Below are positions 48,324 through 56,650 of a DNA stretch of 64,000 nt, piece by piece; within the stretch, counting starts at the first letter, position 1; each line of letters begins with the position of its first letter. Made by a program: the position numbers and the translations under genes. The stretch lies in the NCBI GenBank assembly GCA_965207445.1, contig CBDBLX010000002.1, forward strand, positions 1,591,849 through 1,655,848, read 5' to 3'. Origin of the DNA: Nitrosopumilus sp. (GTDB lineage Archaea > Thermoproteota > Nitrososphaeria > Nitrososphaerales > Nitrosopumilaceae). The notes below the pieces were generated by a model. That model had not been told where the DNA came from. It was given only the letters and a program-made list of their open reading frames with translations, and made no database searches.

Positions 48324-48367
48324 TATACAATCCACTCAAAGGGGAAATTTAGTATTTACTATACAAA

Positions 48368-48856
48368 TAGTGTGTTGCATAATTTGTAAATTTACACACC
48401 TCTGAGTGTTGTGTCCATGTAGTGAGCCGTACAATATAGATAGCACAAAGGTCAAGATACACAACAACGTTACCAGCATATCGCGCTCAAGCCTAAAAGA
48501 CCAGCATGGCGATCCAATCTACTCTGTTTTGTCCAGCAACCAGATATGGATCAAGTCCCCCAATCTTCCAAATTAACTCAGCTGTCAGTACGTCAGTAGT
48601 TCACAATGTGCCCAATTTTAATGATCTTATTTCTAATTATACTGTGCGGCAGGTTTACAATGGCAAGTAACTACCGTGCTCCAATTCCCACCAAAGTAAT
48701 CTTCTAATGTGTGAACCAAGCTCCATGACAGATATGATCATTCAAAAATAAATCTGTCCAAATGTCACGCATACACGATATTCAATATATAGATAGAAAT
48801 GTGACTAAATATAGGTATATAATTTTATTATTACATCCACAGAGCTTGGTGCACAC
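48368..48856. mobile_element. Nested remnants: IS5 left end (48368-), ISH3 right end (~48592-48705), 148-bp MITE (48709-48856)
   Basis: Matches to 16055-16125, 10623-10740 and 28058-28205 respectively. Confidence 0.75.
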
Positions 48857-49098
48857 GATTATTTCAAGCACGAAATTACAAAAATCCACTGTACAGAAAC
48901 TTACGTCCGTCGCCATATTTATGAGCATTAATAATTAGATCTGAACGCTTATCTTGTGAGCATCATAATATGATCAAAGTTTTAAAATAAATAAATAAAT
49001 AAATAAACAAATAAAAAAATGTTGCATTATCTGCAATATCTAGACTGCTTACAGTCATCTTTTTACACAGTTGGAATTACTAGTAAAATCATTACGCC

Positions 49099-49272
49099 TT
49101 ATTCGCCACCCGGTGCAAAGGACACTTTTTTACCCTTTACAACAAATTTTACCGTTTCTGGATACTCCATCAACTCCATGATAGGTTTTGGTATCCTACA
49201 AAGGTGGCTCCCAAGTCCGTTATGGTTTACGTTCATTTCAAATTCACGTGCGCCTTTTTTCCAACGAGACAT
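49099..49272 (-). CDS. 57-aa AbrB/SpoVT-like DNA-binding microprotein (not in ORF track)
   Basis: MSRWKKGAREFEMNV...CRIPKPIMELMEYPETVKFVVKGKKVSF. Confidence 0.6.
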   Translation of the reverse strand: MSRWKKGAREFEMNVNHNGLGSHLCRIPKPIMELMEYPETVKFVVKGKKVSFAPGGE

Positions 49273-49962
49273 AAAATTGCATATGTAGAGTTACTTTTAA
49301 TGCTTTTGATCAGTATGTGACAACGGAAATGAATATTTTTTATTAAAATAATTACAATGTTATTTGGTAATATTACAAATATTAATCAAAAGGTAAAAAA
49401 TATAATAAAAATTAATATGAATTTAAATACAATAGTAATATGTTATTTTTTTATGCCATTTTGCAAACATTTGAATTAAACTTTATACCGCCTATTACAG
49501 TACGATCAAACTAGAGGTAATACAAGTGACAGATTGCATTATTTAACAAATGCAAAAAACACTCAAATATGAGCACAGAATAAAACGTACTCAAACATAA
49601 CAACAGACTACACAGATCAAACAAGTGACACTATAAAGTAATTATAATTTTGTTCAGGGGTGTCAAGATATGGTTTTTGTTGGTATTGTATAATGATGTT
49701 CATAAATTTTGGCACAATGAAAAAATTATGTTGGGTGGTTTTTAACAGACATCTTTGCATAGGAATGCTCAGTGATTTAGATTTGCCATATTTTTAAAAT
49801 ATAAAATGTCAAAAAATGTGGTGTTGAGGATCTATGATACACACGTGCGCTAACATGTAACGGGACATTAAACATAGAGACTGTAGACTGGCACATTTAG
49901 CCTACAACCGTATTCATCTATTTTGGAATCAGCAATGCTGGAATTTGCATTTACAAATGGGC

Positions 49963-50043
49963 GAGGTTGGTGCGTAATTGACGTTAGCATGCCTATGACC
50001 CTTTTGTGAGATTACTTGGTTTATTGCACATTCAATCTGCATA
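49963..50043 (-). mobile_element. Isolated right end of the 4655/51648 IS family, inverted
   Basis: GAGGTTGGTGCGTAATTGAC...CTTGGTTTATTGCACATTCAATCT. Confidence 0.8.
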
Positions 50044-50334
50044 GATGTGTGTTGAGGTGTACAAGTAGGGGGTTTAACTGTTACTTTGTACGATTAGATC
50101 CTGTTTAAATAACAGATACGACTAAGATATAAGAGGAATTGGAGCAAGTATAATTATGATAGATAATCGAATTGAGATTACAATAGACATACCGCGGTCT
50201 GATTCCATACGTGACTCTGACAAGGAAAAAGACTGCAAAGACAAGACATCGGGTACCCGCCCCATGTATTTCTATCAGGGACCAACGATCATAAACAAAA
50301 GCATAATTATATCCAATCCAGAGCAGAATTAACG

Positions 50335-51576
50335 TTATACCTCTCGCCACACAATCTTTTCAGCGTGAATGTCTATCCTATCAACAGGCATGTTGCGCCT
50401 CAATTGAGCCGTTATCATGTCCTCTACTTGCCTTACCAAATCCTGCCGCATTTGCTCTGACATGCGTTTGTCTTGCGATGAGGTGTTCTGATCCGAGTCA
50501 TTGCCGGAAGGTTGCGATGGGGGCATAATGCTCAAGTTTAGTTGTGGCGGGATGCGCCTGATCCGTTTCAACTGCATTGGTCCCGAGTATTCGTGGCATC
50601 TGGCAGACGATTCTATACACGCAACAACTGCGTTGTCTTCCTCGTATACGTCCTTGTCATCATCATCAAAATATGCCAAGGTATTTTCAAATGAATTGAG
50701 GTTCAAGTCCTTTTCATACTGTAGGAACAGGTCCCAGCACAGTTCTTCTAGTTCACCATCCATGTCGCTTACCTGCAGCCCCATCTGTTTGGCCTCGCGC
50801 CTTCCAACGGAGTGTCCGTGGATAAACGTGCACTCAGTAAGTGCTGTTATTACGTTTTGAATCTCAGCGTCAGTCAATGTGGGTTTTACCTGCCTGAGCA
50901 TCTTTTCTGCGATTGCTCGGGCATAAGAATGCACGCGGTTTATCTGCCCCAGTATAGGTGGGCACAGCGCATCTGCCAGTGATTTTGTCAAATTTGCCAG
51001 TGCATCCTGACTTGTAATCCCGACCTTATCTTTTATGAATGACAGGTATGAGGGTATGTCCTCTGTACTGATCGTCATCGGAAAGAAGTCACTCGGCGCC
51101 CCATCGCGCCCACTAGTCATCTGCGGGTCAATTGGGCCCAGTTCGCCCTTTCTACCCATCAGAATCTTGTCTGTTCCCAATGCAATCAGTGTGGTTGCGC
51201 TAAATGCCTTGAAGTAAAGCATATTAGTTGAGCACATATTATGAATACAAAATATTAGAAAACTATCGGATCTTTAATGAAACTATTATGCCTTGAAGGT
51301 GATCAGTGCATTTAGTTCTTCACCGTACTCTCTGAGCATACTAATGATGGGCCAGGGGGTATCCAGATTTCCGCCCCTTGAATAGAGGTAAAGGTCAATC
51401 TTCTGTACCTTTTCATTGTTGTTCATACTCCTCAGGTGTTCGTAAATCCACCTTATGGCGTCACTTGAAATCTGCGCGTTTAAAATCGGCCTATCTCCTA
51501 CAAAGTACACTAGGACTTTTGAATTGCGGTGCTGCTCTATCTTTTCTATGATGTTTCTACGATCTGCTCTGCCCAT
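50335..51576 (-). pseudogene. SDH/ClpP-fold serine protease interrupted by an 84-bp insertion
   Basis: LYLYSRGG, KAFSATTLIALG, LGPIDPQ, IHGHSVGRREAKQMGL. Confidence 0.8.
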
Positions 51577-51647
51577 TTGAATATCTGTCGTACCATTCTA
51601 TTAAAAATGAATCCATTTGGTAGGTATTAAAGCAATGTGGTTGAATT

Positions 51648-53327
51648 GAGGTTGGTGCGCAATTCATCAAATTGCCACCTGCATCGTACTTGCAAAGTCA
51701 TCTGCAAATATCACCAGAGTTTTATGTGCATATATTTAATAAGCTCATATATAAAAGTATCTGCGCGCATACCAAAAGTGACTTATAGGGGCATCCCAAT
51801 TGAATAATTGTAATATGAACAAAGGGGATGCTAAACAACGTTGACTAGCCAATCTTATCAACGTATCGTTTGTGAAGTGTGGTGGAACGACGACATATGT
51901 GTGGGCTGCCACAACATGCTATGCTACACAGAATGACGTCCATTACAATGCATGGCTTGTGATGAATGTGACGCCTGCTTGTTGTTTGTGTAAATTTAGT
52001 GTGTGAGTTTCAAGTAAGAACAGATTATGGAGGTAGACCGTACAGTGACAGAGCAGCAGCACAAGCGACGCGAAGGTTACTGGCAGTATTACGAACAGGC
52101 ACGCAAATCTGAGCAGGATTTTATGCGCAAGACATGGTTGTCGGCGATACGAAAAAACCCACATCCGTGCAAGGAAAAGAAAACAAATAGAGGAGGATGC
52201 AAGCCTGTACACTTGCGTGGCAAGATGGATTTTTTGTGTCTTTTTAAAGTTGCAAAAAATATTCCTTTTCGTGATGTGGTAAATGAGCTTGGACATATGC
52301 ATGATGAATGGGTTGACGAGCCGATGCCTGATTAGTTGAGTAACCGAACATATGCAAACAATTGATCTCGACTGGCTTGATTCTATTTTGGCATATACTG
52401 CCAATATGTGTCTAACTGAACTTAAAAAATCGGGGACAGATCCGGTACCGATAAAATACAAAGAGTCCATACTTACGCACGGATCCGAGGATTTTGAGAG
52501 CGGTAAACAAGACGTAAAACAAGAACCTACAGCTCCAATTGGGGTAGACAGTAGTGGGGTAGAGACTGACAGGTACGAAAAACAAGAAAAATCTAATCAT
52601 TTACCACAAGACTTTGAGCCGACACGCATCAAGACGTACCTAAAATATCACATTACTGCGATAACAGGACACCAGATCATACTTGCATCATACACAACTC
52701 CAAGCAATGTGAGTGACACGCCAATGCTTCCATATATGGTCAACTTTTTCGTAAAAAACTATACACAGATTGAAGAGTGCTTATTCAACGGAGACAAGAG
52801 ATACATTCGGATCAAAACTGTGAGATAATATTCAATGCAAACATGAAACCAAACATAAAGCAGCGCAATCACACAGATGGCGCAGGTCATACAAACCGTG
52901 GCAAACCAAGCAGAAAAAAGGCAGCGGAGATCTTTGACAAAGATGCATACAAACAACGCGCACTTATCGAGGCAATATTTGGAGCAGTAGAAGAGACAAA
53001 GAATCACAGGCTACACTATCGTATGCGTCTGGCCAAAAACCAAAAGCGGTTTGGTAAAATACTATCAATTGCAGGGAATATCAACGTCCTAAACAGATTT
53101 ATCTGCGCTCATAAAAAAGGGCAAAAGATTCCATCATACCAATGATAGTGACTGCTATCACACTTGCACGTCCATATTCTATAATCCATGTCTGCCAAAA
53201 CACACATGTATATTCAAAAACGAAACGCACTATAGATAGATTCCAGTCTTTTGTAGATTGAATGTGCAATAAACCAAGTTCACAGACGGGTCACAGGCAG
53301 GCCAAATGTCAATTACGCACCAACCTC
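51648..53327 (+). mobile_element. Degenerate second copy of the 4655-6326 IS (stop and frameshifts, no TSD)
   Basis: High similarity end to end; TIR GAGGTTGGTGCG(C/T)AATT; transposase broken into 52027-52335, 52352-52828 and 52777-53145. Confidence 0.9.
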
Positions 53328-53531
53328 CCATGCCAGACATATATTAAAAATGATCACACGTTATTTGCAACCAAACTTTGTTCTGTGCTAAGACTTTTGA
53401 GTGTCGCTATAGGAAGAGTACATCATGCAACCATTCAGTATACGAGGGTGGTGGGGCGTAGGTATTACGTAGTTAAGTATCTTATTAGTCAAGTTCAAAC
53501 ATTTAAAAGCGGTATTTCCTATTAGCTAATA

Positions 53532-54560
53532 ATGATTACACATCAGGAAATAGGGGTTTTAAATCATGAACCCAAGCTTAAGGAGAGTAAAGAGAGGGTG
53601 GCACGACACTTTGAGGATGCAGGGTGGACGCTTTATTACAACCAGATGATCCGAGGTAGAATAGCGGATCTGGTGGCCGAAAAGAACGGAAAACTGGCAA
53701 TAATCGAGGTAAAGGGGAGTGGATTGAAACGGGACAATGCCATTCGGACAGTCCTGCATTTTAAAAATGCCGTAAATTACGCATACCTGGCAATCCCCGG
53801 TGCCCTAGGCCAGAGAATGGAAAATATGTGCAGAGAGTTGGGAGTGGGCCTGATTACCATAGACGACGACATTATAGAGGCAGTATCTCCCCAGGAAACA
53901 GAGGCGCTGGACTCAGTAAGGTGTAGGATCCTTCATGTGGAGAAAAAGCGGCCTGCAGTTCGGAGAAAGAGTCTCCTGCAGACGTTATTCCGATCAACGA
54001 CGCTTGTGCACGTACTGGGCTTTCTGCTGCTGAATCAGACAGGCGAGTTTTATCTAAACGAGCTGGCACAGAGGACAGGGCTGGCACCATCGACTGTCCT
54101 GAGGGAACTGAACAGGGTGGAGCCATTAGGTATCATCTCCAAGACCAAAAAGGGCACGGCAGTGTTTTATAGGATAAACAGGAACTGCATAATCCATGAG
54201 GAACTAAGACGGATATTTCTAAAGTTTGAGATTGCAGACATGATCATCACAAAGGAACTTGCACAGTACGACATAAGGTACGCGCTGATTTACGGTTCGT
54301 TTGCCAAGGGGACAGAGACAGAGTCAAGTGACATAGACTTGTTGGTTATAGGCCAGGTATCTAGGGACAGGTTTTATGAGTCAGTTTCAGCCTTGGAAAA
54401 CAAGATAGGGAGGGAGATCAACGCAATCGTGTGGGACGAGCAGCAGTTTAGTAGTCAGAAGGAGAGATCATCACTATTAGGCCATATAAAGCTCAATGAG
54501 ATAATCATGATAAGTGGGGATGAAGATAGATTTAAGCAATATTGCACGATAAGAAGATAG
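53532..54560 (+). CDS. PD-(D/E)xK nuclease-like + wHTH + minimal nucleotidyltransferase (MNT) fusion
   Basis: IADLVAEK...IIEVKG; YLNELAQRTGLAPSTVLREL; YGSFAKG..SDIDLLVIG. Confidence 0.8.
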   Translation: MITHQEIGVLNHEPKLKESKERVARHFEDAGWTLYYNQMIRGRIADLVAEKNGKLAIIEVKGSGLKRDNAIRTVLHFKNAVNYAYLAIPGALGQRMENMCRELGVGLITIDDDIIEAVSPQETEALDSVRCRILHVEKKRPAVRRKSLLQTLFRSTTLVHVLGFLLLNQTGEFYLNELAQRTGLAPSTVLRELNRVEPLGIISKTKKGTAVFYRINRNCIIHEELRRIFLKFEIADMIITKELAQYDIRYALIYGSFAKGTETESSDIDLLVIGQVSRDRFYESVSALENKIGREINAIVWDEQQFSSQKERSSLLGHIKLNEIIMISGDEDRFKQYCTIRR

Positions 54561-54763
54561 TACACTATCAAAGTAGTCAAGAAGAGATTGACTCGAAGAT
54601 CAACATAGTAGATGCCAACCTGAGATCGTGTAAGCATATCGTACTGATAAATGATCCGGACGTAGACGACACTGCATACAAGGAAGCTCATAACGCAATA
54701 CTGCAAGCCAGATGGATGCAACATAATGAGTTATCATGTTTACAGAATTGCACCAATTCTTGA
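54542..54763 (+). pseudogene. HEPN-domain protein, N-terminal fragment
   Basis: Overlaps the MNT stop; TAYKEAHNAILQA helix typical of MNT-associated HEPN; then degenerates. Confidence 0.55.
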
Positions 54764-54854
54764 TTCCCCATGTCAGTGGGGTGTAGAGCAATGCAGAGCA
54801 AATCAAGGCATGGATATATCTGATGATGCTATTTGGGTGTGTAAGAGGATGAGG

Positions 54855-54940
54855 CGCTGGGGGCGGGATTTGAACCCACATACGCTTGGGCGCGTACTCC
54901 CTCTTCAGAGGAGCGGCATGCCGAGTTAGCCGACCCCAGC
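54855..54940 (-). tRNA. Non-canonical class II tRNA: GAA (Phe) anticodon on a Ser-like body
   Basis: Acceptor GCTGGGG/CCCCAGC plus G73; D-arm GGC/GCC with G18G19; anticodon stem CTCCT/GGGAG, loop CT-GAA-GA; variable arm TACGC-GCCCAA-GCGTA; T-arm GTGGG-TTCAAAT-CCCGC. Confidence 0.85.
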
Positions 54941-54974
54941 AACCTTTTTTAACACACTTTGCTTAATACCCTAT

Positions 54975-55026
54975 AGGTGCACTAAAGAGGAGCAAATTGG
55001 GCGCGTACTCCAACAGCACCTTTTTT
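54975..55026 (+). ncRNA. Candidate ~50-nt antisense sRNA to the adjacent tRNA
   Basis: Terminal stem AGGTGC/GCACCT followed by a T-run; carries AGAGGAGC and TTGGGCGCGTACTCC, exact complements of tRNA nt 26-33 and nt 40 through the variable loop. Confidence 0.5.
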
Positions 55027-55135
55027 ATCATAACATCAGTTGACTACGACTCGTCTCATTTTTGTCATGAATCTCTTTAGACCCACTCAGTATAGGATTC
55101 GAGTCCCTTTTTGCCATCTTGTGTTGTTGCCGTCG

Positions 55136-56500
55136 TCAGTAGTTTGCAATATGTTTTATATGATTTTATTTGAATAATCTACAATGTAGTTAAATTTTAA
55201 TGATTATATTTAATCAAATCAAATAGAAAGTGTAACATATGGGAATATTCTAGTATTTCTGATTATATATGAAAAACTATGTATTAAAACATTAATATAA
55301 ATTATGAGAGGTAAATTATAAAGTTTTACAAAAACGATTCTTCAATTTTGGAGTAAAAAAATTAACCAGATATAACAACAAGTATGGCGTGGATGATTAT
55401 CTCGGTACACTTGCCACCATGTCACTTGACAACATGTGCGTAAATGCAGCAACACACAAAAGAAAACATAATGAGGCTAACTATTTTAGAAAAAGTGAGC
55501 GCATAAACATACCATCTGAAAATACTGTGCTCAAGTCTAAAGAGCTCAGATCTAGAACAGGTGAAACAGTGGGGTGACGAGAATATCAAATGTTTAACAA
55601 TGCCAAAAAACACAACATGCTCAAAAAAGGCAAACACCATTGCAATTGATGAGCAGATGGGAATATTATGGCAAGGCACTTAAATCTGAGATGCTAAAAA
55701 CAAAACACAATAATGGTACTAGGATTTCATTCATTTATGACAGCGCAAATGATGAACCACGCAGGTAATTGTTTGCAAATCGTGTGACCAATAATGATAA
55801 AATGGTCGCAGTCATGCGTAAAATTATTGAAAAATTAATTCGAGAGCATACACGTCCGGAACTTGTCCTCTTTGATCGAGGTTTTTACAACGTTGCATGT
55901 ATAGAAGAACTTTTGCGCCTGCCTTTCATAATACTAGCAATTAAAAATAAGCGTATATAAAAGTATATTTTAAAAGTTCACAACAAAAAAAGAAAACCTG
56001 CATCAATTATTGAGATGTGTGACAAAAACAAAAAACAGCAAGTTTACATTACTTGTCATCAAAAAAAAACAACGTCAAAAAAACTGATGAAATAATCGAT
56101 CAGTATGTAACATTGGCCACAAATATGAAAATCACTAACAAAAGCAAACTCATCAAAACCATCCCAGAGACTTGTTGCAAGCGCTGGATAATAGAGACAG
56201 GATTATAGTGATAAAAAATACTACTCCAAAGACAACTAGCAACGCCTTGTAGGTTCGATTATTGTTGATATTTTTTGGAGTGTTGCTATGTGGTTTGTGG
56301 GCAATGGTAAGATACGAAAATTACGACGTACTTGCAAATGAAAAATTATTCACAATGGATACTTTATGGATTCAATTGCCGGATTGATCAGAGGACTGCT
56401 TTGATAGGAACTAAAACAGAATAGTTACTTGCCAATAAATCTACCGCACTGTATAATTAGAAATAAGATCATTAGAATTGGGCACATTGTGAACTACTGA
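55136..56500 (+). mobile_element. ISH3-like (IS4 superfamily) element with degraded transposase
   Basis: TIR TCAGTAGTT(T/C)(G/A)CAAT at both ends; TIAIDE, LFDRGFY, KRWIIETG fragments. Confidence 0.8.
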
Positions 56501-56650
56501 TTTTAATTAGAAAAACGTTGTGACATCGGGATTAAAAACAAATTCATTTTACAAGTTATTTAATCAAATGTAATTACGTTGAATTTGTATCCAAAATTAT
56601 ATGCTAAATGGCATTGCTAAATGACATTGCTAAATGATATGCTAAATGAT

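Follow-up and report, generated by a model that had tools for sequence, protein, structure and literature searches.

Two groups of small antisense RNAs, CopA/CopT of plasmid R1 and the Sok/hok-type antitoxin RNAs, are encoded on the opposite strand beside their target. In CopA/CopT-type systems the antisense pairing usually starts at exposed loop bases. A different arrangement is found in the type VIII system CreTA of haloarchaea, in which CreT sequesters a rare tRNA and CreA acts through Cascade. Here we report a short element from a stretch of 64,000 nucleotides (nt) of the Nitrosopumilus sp. contig CBDBLX010000002.1 (the whole stretch that was analysed, hereafter the window, to which all positions refer unless another genome is named). 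The element, at 54975-55026 on the + strand, stands beside a tRNA gene of the other strand that joins a class II body to a phenylalanine anticodon, and it contains two blocks identical to segments of that same tRNA. Our reading, plausible and at the same time tentative, is that it would be a divergently encoded antisense RNA gene of ~50-60 nt, specific to the adjoining accessory tRNA.

The element resembles the CopA/CopT and Sok/hok-type systems in several respects, as it would give a small RNA from the strand opposite to the neighbouring target, with exact complementarity including exposed loops, and as it belongs to a compact and sporadically distributed cassette. Unlike in those systems, the target would be a tRNA and not an mRNA, no conserved hairpin was found, and the predicted RNA does not run across the target gene but holds transplanted copies of two segments in swapped order. 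With CreTA it would share that both partners are RNAs, an archaeal host and a toxic action through the translation apparatus; however, the harmful partner would here be the tRNA itself. The archaeal box C/D and H/ACA guides are also small RNAs with one or two tRNA-complementary stretches of 10-15 nt, often near the anticodon. However, neither C (RUGAUGA) and D (CUGA) boxes nor C' or D' boxes were identified on the + strand, an ACA box and its pocket are likewise absent, and the order of the blocks is, in our reading, the reverse of that in an H/ACA pocket. The only Rfam match here, to the C/D RNA sR12, was discarded, as it was on the other strand and scored 15.9 bits (E 0.98), far from the gathering score of 38.

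Regarding the tRNA, the nearest described cases are the mistranslating tRNA-Ser variants. The human tRNA-Ser-AGA G35A is described in the abstracts of two reports as putting serine at Phe codons (PMC12993449; PMC6827378), and according to the second, seryl-tRNA synthetase ignores the anticodon (PMC6827378). The tRNA of the window is like these variants in having a Ser-like body with a long variable arm and a Phe (or, at a second locus described below, Leu) anticodon. It differs from them in being archaeal and accessory and in belonging to a multi-copy family with compensatory changes; no partner RNA is mentioned for the known cases in these abstracts. In the literature that was searched, neither archaeal class II tRNAs with anticodon GAA nor a small RNA directed against a tRNA were described.

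On the + strand, positions 54975-55026 read AGGTGC-ACTAA-AGAGGAGC-AAA-TTGGGCGCGTACTCC-AACA-GCACCT, running out into T6, the start of the element being placed 34 nt from the tRNA 5' end. The features are the following.

54853-54940, - strand: class II tRNA with anticodon GAA, G37 and discriminator base G73 (ARAGORN; Rfam RF00005), the presumed target.

54941-54974, both strands: spacer of 34 nt with divergent promoter-like motifs, compared with the upstream regions of 47 tRNAs.

54975-55026, + strand: candidate small RNA of ~50 nt, predicted from the sequence, consisting of leader, X' block, AAA, Y' block, AACAG, CACC and T6.

54986-54993, + strand: X' block AGAGGAGC, an exact copy of 54907-54914, complementary in the tRNA to G26, the 5' strand of the anticodon stem, C32 and U33.

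54997-55011, + strand: Y' block TTGGGCGCGTACTCC, an exact copy of 54886-54900, complementary in the tRNA to the 3' strand of the anticodon stem and, in the variable arm, to its 5' strand and loop.

55017-55029, + strand: CACC, T6 and ATC, shared with the second locus (GATAAAAAAGGTG on the tRNA strand), with a terminator-like U-run on the + strand.

55042-55047, + strand: GACTAC (GTAGTC on the tRNA strand), shared with the second locus at 9-12 nt past the A-run; being a 6-mer, it is a weak likeness.

A preliminary description made from the letters of the window had given this string, the 34-nt distance, and the copies of 15 and 8 nt in swapped order. All of them were found again in the window sequence, and one tRNA, at this place, was recognized in the window both by ARAGORN and by Rfam (44.7 bits against RF00005, with a gathering score of 29). 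In the cloverleaf numbering used here one block covers, in antisense, tRNA positions 26-33 and the other position 40 through the variable loop, and G34-G39 stay uncovered. Read along the tRNA strand, the region is ...GTAGTC-N12-TGATAAAAAAGGTG-CTGTT-(15-mer)-TTT-(8-mer)-TTAGTGCA.... Contigs from three sequencing runs were compared with the window, and a contig of 195 nt from a second study spans 54946-55140 with T7 in place of T6, a 1-nt deletion at 55095 and two other changed letters; in that run, with a depth of ~2, the tRNA itself is not covered.

The source genome (G000) has 2.6 Mb, a G+C content of 39.6% and tRNA genes with introns; ARAGORN identified 47 tRNA genes in it, and an ordinary tRNA-Phe(GAA) as well as tRNA-Ser for TGA, CGA, GGA and GCT are also encoded. 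Alignment with the Ser, Leu and Phe tRNAs of this genome showed a long variable arm and the anticodon loop CUGAAGA in the window tRNA, which joins a class II body to a Phe anticodon. The body of this tRNA, and of that at the second locus, looks serine-type, an assignment for which we presume the textbook identity rules (G73 plus a long variable arm), while the anticodon is Phe in the window and Leu in the other.

The copies exceed what chance provides. The 15-mer occurs exactly twice in the 2.6-Mb genome, as determined by BLAST. When the 194-nt flank was shuffled 5000 times with its dinucleotides preserved, the longest match to the tRNA was of 13 nt (2/5000), and 15 nt was reached in 0/5000. 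A self-copy of at least 10 nt within 400 nt was present at four of the 47 tRNA genes of the source genome, and one of at least 12 nt only at the window tRNA; none of the 20 ordinary tRNA-Ser(GCT) loci used as controls (two of them from unpublished genomes) had a self-copy of at least 12 nt within the same distance. Shuffles of the second locus, in the genome G412, reached the 13 nt matched there in 2/3000 cases. The complementarity is therefore beyond chance in both loci, as in an antisense RNA.

This second locus was found in another genus of the same family as the source genome, and its tRNA is the following.

G412:C62 11984-12074 (L362): class II tRNA with G73 and anticodon CAA (Leu), 70.9 bits with the covariance model.

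The tRNA has a 6-bp variable stem, and upstream of it are found, in this order, GATAAAAAA(AA)GGTG, 5 nt, a copy of the variable arm and, after a single nt, one of the anticodon-stem strand on the 5' side. The tRNA strand reads ...GTAGTC-N9-CGATAAAAAAAAGGTG-GTTAG-CCATAACCCTGGA-T-ATTGCCTCAA-CTCTGCA..., GATAAAAAAAAGGTG standing directly before GTTAG. The block CCATAACCCTGGA is identical to positions 50-62 of the tRNA (variable arm and loop, 13/13), a match that extends with the preceding TTAG to 17/18 with one base missing. The second block, ATTGCCTCAA, agrees in 9/10 positions with ATTGTCTCAA of the tRNA (5' strand of the anticodon stem plus CUCAA), and the single mismatch would be a G-U pair in the antisense RNA. 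The order of the blocks (variable arm, then anticodon stem), their orientation and their adjacency at 1-3 nt are common to both loci, so that the swapped order noted in the window recurs. In addition, the 10-mer AAAAAAGGTG precedes the exact block with 5 nt between them in each case, which on the antisense strand corresponds to CACC and U6-8 right after the second block. U-runs act as terminators in archaea. As both loci show on this strand a leader, a block, one to three A, a block, 5 nt, CACC and U6-8, the arrangement was read as that of a small-RNA gene.

The two tRNAs have nothing in common in the segments that were copied, and each element matches its own tRNA: the window element has matches of at most 8 nt with the G412 tRNA, and the G412 element of at most 7 nt with the window tRNA. 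The elements and their tRNAs thus vary together, as had been asked of further pairs by the preliminary description; with n = 2, this is support and not proof. A single ancient copying event followed by drift cannot explain that each element fits its own, wholly different tRNA, and either selection would keep the element matched to the tRNA or some process would rewrite it each time. Rather than having arisen by accident, the matched element would probably give a small RNA that is the partner of the tRNA. The G412 locus also changes two earlier proposals. That G34-G39 are left free holds for the window and is not a rule, given that the second block of G412 covers the anticodon CAA; this same fact weakens the idea of a guide that presents the anticodon.

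The G412 cassette has ~300 bp, comprising the element, the promoter, the tRNA and ~65 nt more, and it lies between two conserved housekeeping genes. In three congeners (G193, G374 and G492) the same genes adjoin and the cassette is missing, and at the syntenic site of the source genome the homologous genes flank a spacer with no tRNA. A 3-nt ACT repeat was found at the insertion junction. By this comparison of gene order, the G412 cassette is a lineage-specific insertion.

Co-folding of element and tRNA gave gains of -8.7 kcal/mol in the window and -9.4 kcal/mol in G412, these cognate values being the best of the pairs compared. For the window the shuffled mean was -1.4 and the minimum -5.7 kcal/mol. 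In the minimum-energy fold of the + strand, AAAUUGGGC was in the apical loop, where it had been predicted.

A mechanism can be proposed from these data. The tRNA (- strand) and an RNA of ~50-60 nt (+ strand) would be transcribed divergently from the common AT-rich spacer. Of the two adjacent recognition blocks of the small RNA, one would be directed to the anticodon stem, with its 5' strand and the bases that begin the loop, and the other to the variable loop and the strand beside it; the 3' end of the RNA would be formed by CACC and then the U-run acting as terminator. After a start at both exposed loops, pairing would open the anticodon stem as well as the variable stem, and the paired tRNA could then be removed from use or marked for decay. 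The small RNA would in this way restrain a potentially miscoding tRNA, either as a regulator or as an antidote. On two loci, the proposal of the preliminary description, an antidote or a guide directed to the tRNA, is partly supported by sequence comparison. A more far-reaching version, which we regard as unlikely, is that the ~300 bp would constitute a mobile RNA-only cassette made up of a miscoding serine-type tRNA for Phe or Leu codons and a cognate anti-tRNA RNA that unfolds it, functioning as an addiction or control module with the tRNA as toxin.

The GAA class II tRNAs form a family beyond the window. They were searched by pattern over 401 genomes of the family Nitrosopumilaceae and afterwards with a covariance model over 151 genomes; the counts over the family genomes and over the 400 genomes of the class include unpublished ones (G345, G384, G418, G274, G497 and G496), on which none of the main claims depends. 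The search revealed 24 further loci, distributed over 13 genomes of this family (G163, G396, G386, G626, G431, G338, G178, G158, G373, G154, G298, G248 and G278), two of the loci being decayed. The loci of this family, mostly with G73, include L276, L282, L284-L286, L288-L290, L293, L299-L304 and L327-L333, and the tRNAs are often multi-copy per genome. The window tRNA was the top match of its genome to the family profile (nhmmer E 2.6e-5; covariance model R1, 77.8 bits). In an alignment of ten of these tRNAs, compensatory double changes were found in 14 of the 23 predicted pairs; base -1 pairs with base 73, giving an acceptor helix of 8 bp, and the leader and trailer of many copies (AAACYY ... 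GGGTTT) are able to pair further. In view of the compensatory changes these are maintained tRNA-like genes, accessory and of patchy distribution. Matches to a D-loop/anticodon pattern of the TCTGCATGGGGAGA... type were set aside, since most of them lie inside a protein gene and are not tRNAs.

Two members of the family have other copies beside them. About 93 nt downstream of the tRNA at L290/L297 (G178:C1), two of its 3' pieces, TGGCTCAGATATC and TCCTACC, recur as a direct copy in which TG connects them and the T arm is left out; this copy may be an attachment (att)-type remnant. At L328 a T-arm copy is placed upstream of the tRNA.

Several results weigh against an antisense RNA gene, and they are gathered here. 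First of all, the element was found at only two loci. A strict spacing pattern had two true cases in the 401 family genomes (the window and G412; a match in G483 was false), and in viral contigs it had no true case among 25 matches and none among 9 matches. No element-like self-copy was present in the 220-600 nt upstream of any of the 24 related GAA class II loci. A GAA anticodon on a class II body does not by itself, therefore, require an antidote. The likeness between the two loci is also thin outside the blocks: the AAAAAAGGTG similarity was equalled in 10/1000 shuffles by a local alignment that ignores position, and neither the spacer from the blocks to the tRNA (735/1000) nor the trailer downstream of it (645/1000) was significant. 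For this reason a shared arrangement with a motif at a fixed offset is claimed, and not homology of the whole ~300 bp. In addition, the neighbourhood consists of decayed mobile DNA.

The predicted structure and the promoters weigh on the same side. The hairpin formerly attributed to the element was not sustained, as the + strand fold (-12.2 kcal/mol, z = -0.91) was equalled or exceeded in stability by 35/200 shuffles, and the outer stem AGGTGC/GCACCT is absent in G412, no fold being common to both RNAs. The margin of the cognate duplex over a non-cognate one is small (-8.7 against -7.4 kcal/mol for tRNA-Leu(CAG)). Besides, each block would pair with the side of the target that corresponds to its own place in the RNA, 5' with 5' and 3' with 3', across a linker of 1-3 nt, so that by our own geometric estimate simultaneous full pairing of both blocks would hardly be possible. 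As for the TATA-like motifs proposed on both strands of the spacer, the one on the tRNA side (AGGGTATTAAG, the complement of 54961-54971, GCTTAATACCC) fits the AGGATTAAT-type motif found at about -33 to -25 upstream of other tRNAs of the genome, while the + strand candidate CCTTTTTTAAC (54943-54953) is weaker.

Other scans and searches gave the following results. The terminator scan of 53300-55400 returned no site, and with 35 nt between the arms of the outer stem the element does not form a hairpin like that of an intrinsic terminator. The output of the sigma-70 and terminator scans was not considered meaningful, nor was a Toxin_12 match of Pfam on a 46-aa frame. No second such element was found elsewhere in the source genome, nor a further case among 379 loci examined. 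Exact matches to the 15-mer at 70 viral-contig and 118 genome-contig loci were attributed to chance, having no likeness outside the 15-mer and being mostly from high-G+C bacteria. A 24-nt pattern of the tRNA had no match in metagenome contigs or in viral contigs, and a 26-nt pattern of the element had none in metagenome contigs. By DNA search, nothing past T-arm matches was obtained from 61 relatives, neither the tRNA nor the element was in any of 150 other genomes of the genus, and in the 401 family genomes only the tRNA-Lys-like remnant described below was matched.

The genes leuA and leuB are separated by a tRNA-free gap of no more than ~100 nt in 5/5 complete congeneric genomes checked. 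As they are adjacent there, positions 48336-56650 of the window, which lie between them, are by comparison of gene order an insertion of 8.3 kb rich in insertion sequences (IS). It contains toxin-antitoxin gene remains, a solo end (48589-48708) of the IS listed last below, and the following features.

50335-51576: fragments of an SDH-type Clp-like protease.

52352-53145: IS5-like transposase, frameshifted.

53532-54560, + strand: gene with helix-turn-helix (HTH) and minimal nucleotidyltransferase domains (Pfam, NCBIfam), given as context.

54536-54763, + strand: truncated HEPN-like partner gene, downstream of the former.

55069-55134, + strand: remnant like the 3' end of tRNA-Lys(CTT), with a T-arm-like repeat GGATTCGAGTCCCTTTTTGCC, at the right border of the element.

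55135-56500, + strand: degraded IS copy with terminal inverted repeats, outside the element and given as context.

The last of these has 17 further near-full-length copies in the genome, with identities of 83.6-85.5%, and sequencing depth jumps at 55135, where it starts. The HTH-nucleotidyltransferase protein has 342 aa, with an N-terminal region carrying a D..EVK motif, a winged HTH and the minimal nucleotidyltransferase domain. Of 400 other genomes of the class, 47 have homologues, and viral contigs gave no relatives; the HEPN-like frame can be aligned with the partner frames of relatives over its first ~58-62 residues only. The link of this gene to the tRNA appears to be one of island context only. 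In G165 (L223) such a pair is located ~600 nt downstream of the 3' end of the normal tRNA-Ser(GGA), which bears an intron, with a repeat-like stretch between them.

The remnant at 55069-55134 was matched by BLAST with G241 (78%, E 7e-7) and with position C2:1071400 of the source genome (87%, E 2.9e-7). In G241 (L295) a tRNA-Lys(CTT) 3' end with the T-arm-like repeat GGGTTCGAGTCCCTTTTTGCC is an island edge, the island containing a McrBC-like gene. The junction stands there beside an intact tRNA-Lys, and decayed copies of it are those at 55069-55134 and at C2:1071400-1071444. Two other interpretations were rejected. Positions 55080-55115 of the - strand had been considered a remnant of a second GAA-family tRNA; nhmmer gave no support to this, and a + strand match to a tRNA-Lys 3' end was found instead. 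The 5' half of the element as a decayed 5' part of tRNA-Lys gave a weak alignment, equalled in 13/300 shuffles for G241 and in 117/300 for the tRNA-Lys of the source genome.

Two further observations concern the source genome. Its tRNA-Gln(TTG) and tRNA-Gly(CCC) have identical flanks on contigs C1 (51601, 80085) and C2 (35581, 82281), and for this reason C1, a contig of 121 kb, may repeat the first part of C2, either as another haplotype or through duplication in the assembly, which would fit the contamination figure of 5.5%. ARAGORN listed no tRNA-Leu(TAA) in this AT-rich genome, and a stretch like a Leu-type T-arm and 3' half, at C2:2271534-2271569 and ~400 nt before tRNA-Thr(GGT), may belong to a tRNA, with an intron or split, that was missed.

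Given this environment, the copies could be explained at the DNA level. The element would then be the footprint of a mobile tRNA cassette, its blocks being att-like or crossover recombination sites with no RNA partner, and they would match the tRNA because each recombination joins tRNA DNA to the arms of the element. We consider this explanation possible, if rather doubtful. Both blocks are direct repeats of the tRNA, and the window and G412 cassettes are lineage-specific insertions, with the ACT repeat at the G412 junction. The window copy lies among IS copies, toxin-antitoxin fragments and the tRNA-Lys 3'-end remnant with its T-arm-like repeat, and the copies at L290 (two tRNA pieces, downstream) and L328 (T arm, upstream) are in line with it. 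Moreover, integrated elements of Thaumarchaeota are reported to have att sites with a median of 17 bp and as short as 8 bp, and 39 of 68 elements are in tRNA genes (PMC6563490). The blocks of the window are like these att repeats in being short direct repeats of a tRNA, of 8-25 bp, beside it in mobile DNA, and unlike them in being internal, upstream, 96 nt apart and in two swapped blocks, with no integrase in the frames scanned (PMC6563490).

These differences count against a footprint. A tRNA direct repeat of ~8-70 bp, as in att sites, is present (15 and 8 bp); however, the repeats do not bracket an element, no integrase was found in the frames scanned and the repeats do not reach the 3' (or, rarely, 5') end of the tRNA. 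What stands between the two 15-mers is the tRNA promoter and the 5' half of the tRNA, not an element. The blocks touch neither end of the tRNA, which simple integration would split, and we could not derive their swapped order from a recombination of attB x attP. Among the 67 open frames of at least 45 aa in 48336-55134, the 43 that were scanned had no integrase domain, the other 24 mostly overlapping known genes. Finally, housekeeping genes flank the G412 cassette.

It is improbable, in our view, that the functional product is an RNA of the tRNA strand, either a leader or a separate mimic of an anticodon-stem strand and the variable loop, serving as a decoy for some protein or nuclease by which these parts are recognized, or as an alternative pairing partner while the tRNA folds. 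In the window this strand can form an inside-out anticodon stem (GGAG/CUCC; -13.9 kcal/mol, z = -1.72), and an A-rich TATA-like run precedes the blocks in both loci. However, the variable-arm block of G412 lacks the 3' strand of the anticodon stem, so that the inside-out stem is not conserved, and a start ~25 nt past the A-run, which is our estimate of the distance from TATA to start, would fall in the first block. Neither is there a T-run downstream on that strand, and the co-fold of leader and tRNA was unremarkable (z = -1.82).

The least probable explanation is a functionless scar of a one-off rearrangement, with filler patches copied from the adjoining tRNA gene in break repair: the 8.3-kb insertion with its IS copies, frameshifted transposase, protease fragments and truncated HEPN-like gene, the absence from 150 other species of the genus, the non-significant hairpin fold, and the perfect identity and sharp edges as in recent copying would agree with it, but in G412 this arrangement recurs, fitted to a different tRNA and with motif and offset unchanged, so the accident would be needed twice, and the second-study contig keeps the stretch except for 2 letters and 2 gaps, although at strain level this says little. 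The scar by which the preliminary description had allowed its own proposal to fail is therefore argued against by G412.

If the copies were a recombination footprint, they would reveal an undescribed mode by which small tRNA cassettes move in these archaea. If the element is instead an antisense RNA gene for its tRNA, as we tentatively propose, it would represent a natural control of one specific tRNA, exerted by a cell or a mobile element through a dedicated antisense RNA and tied to tRNAs whose body and anticodon are discordant. This would bear on what allows miscoding tRNAs to be tolerated and to spread, on the logic of RNA-only toxin-antitoxin systems and on the programmable silencing of single tRNAs.

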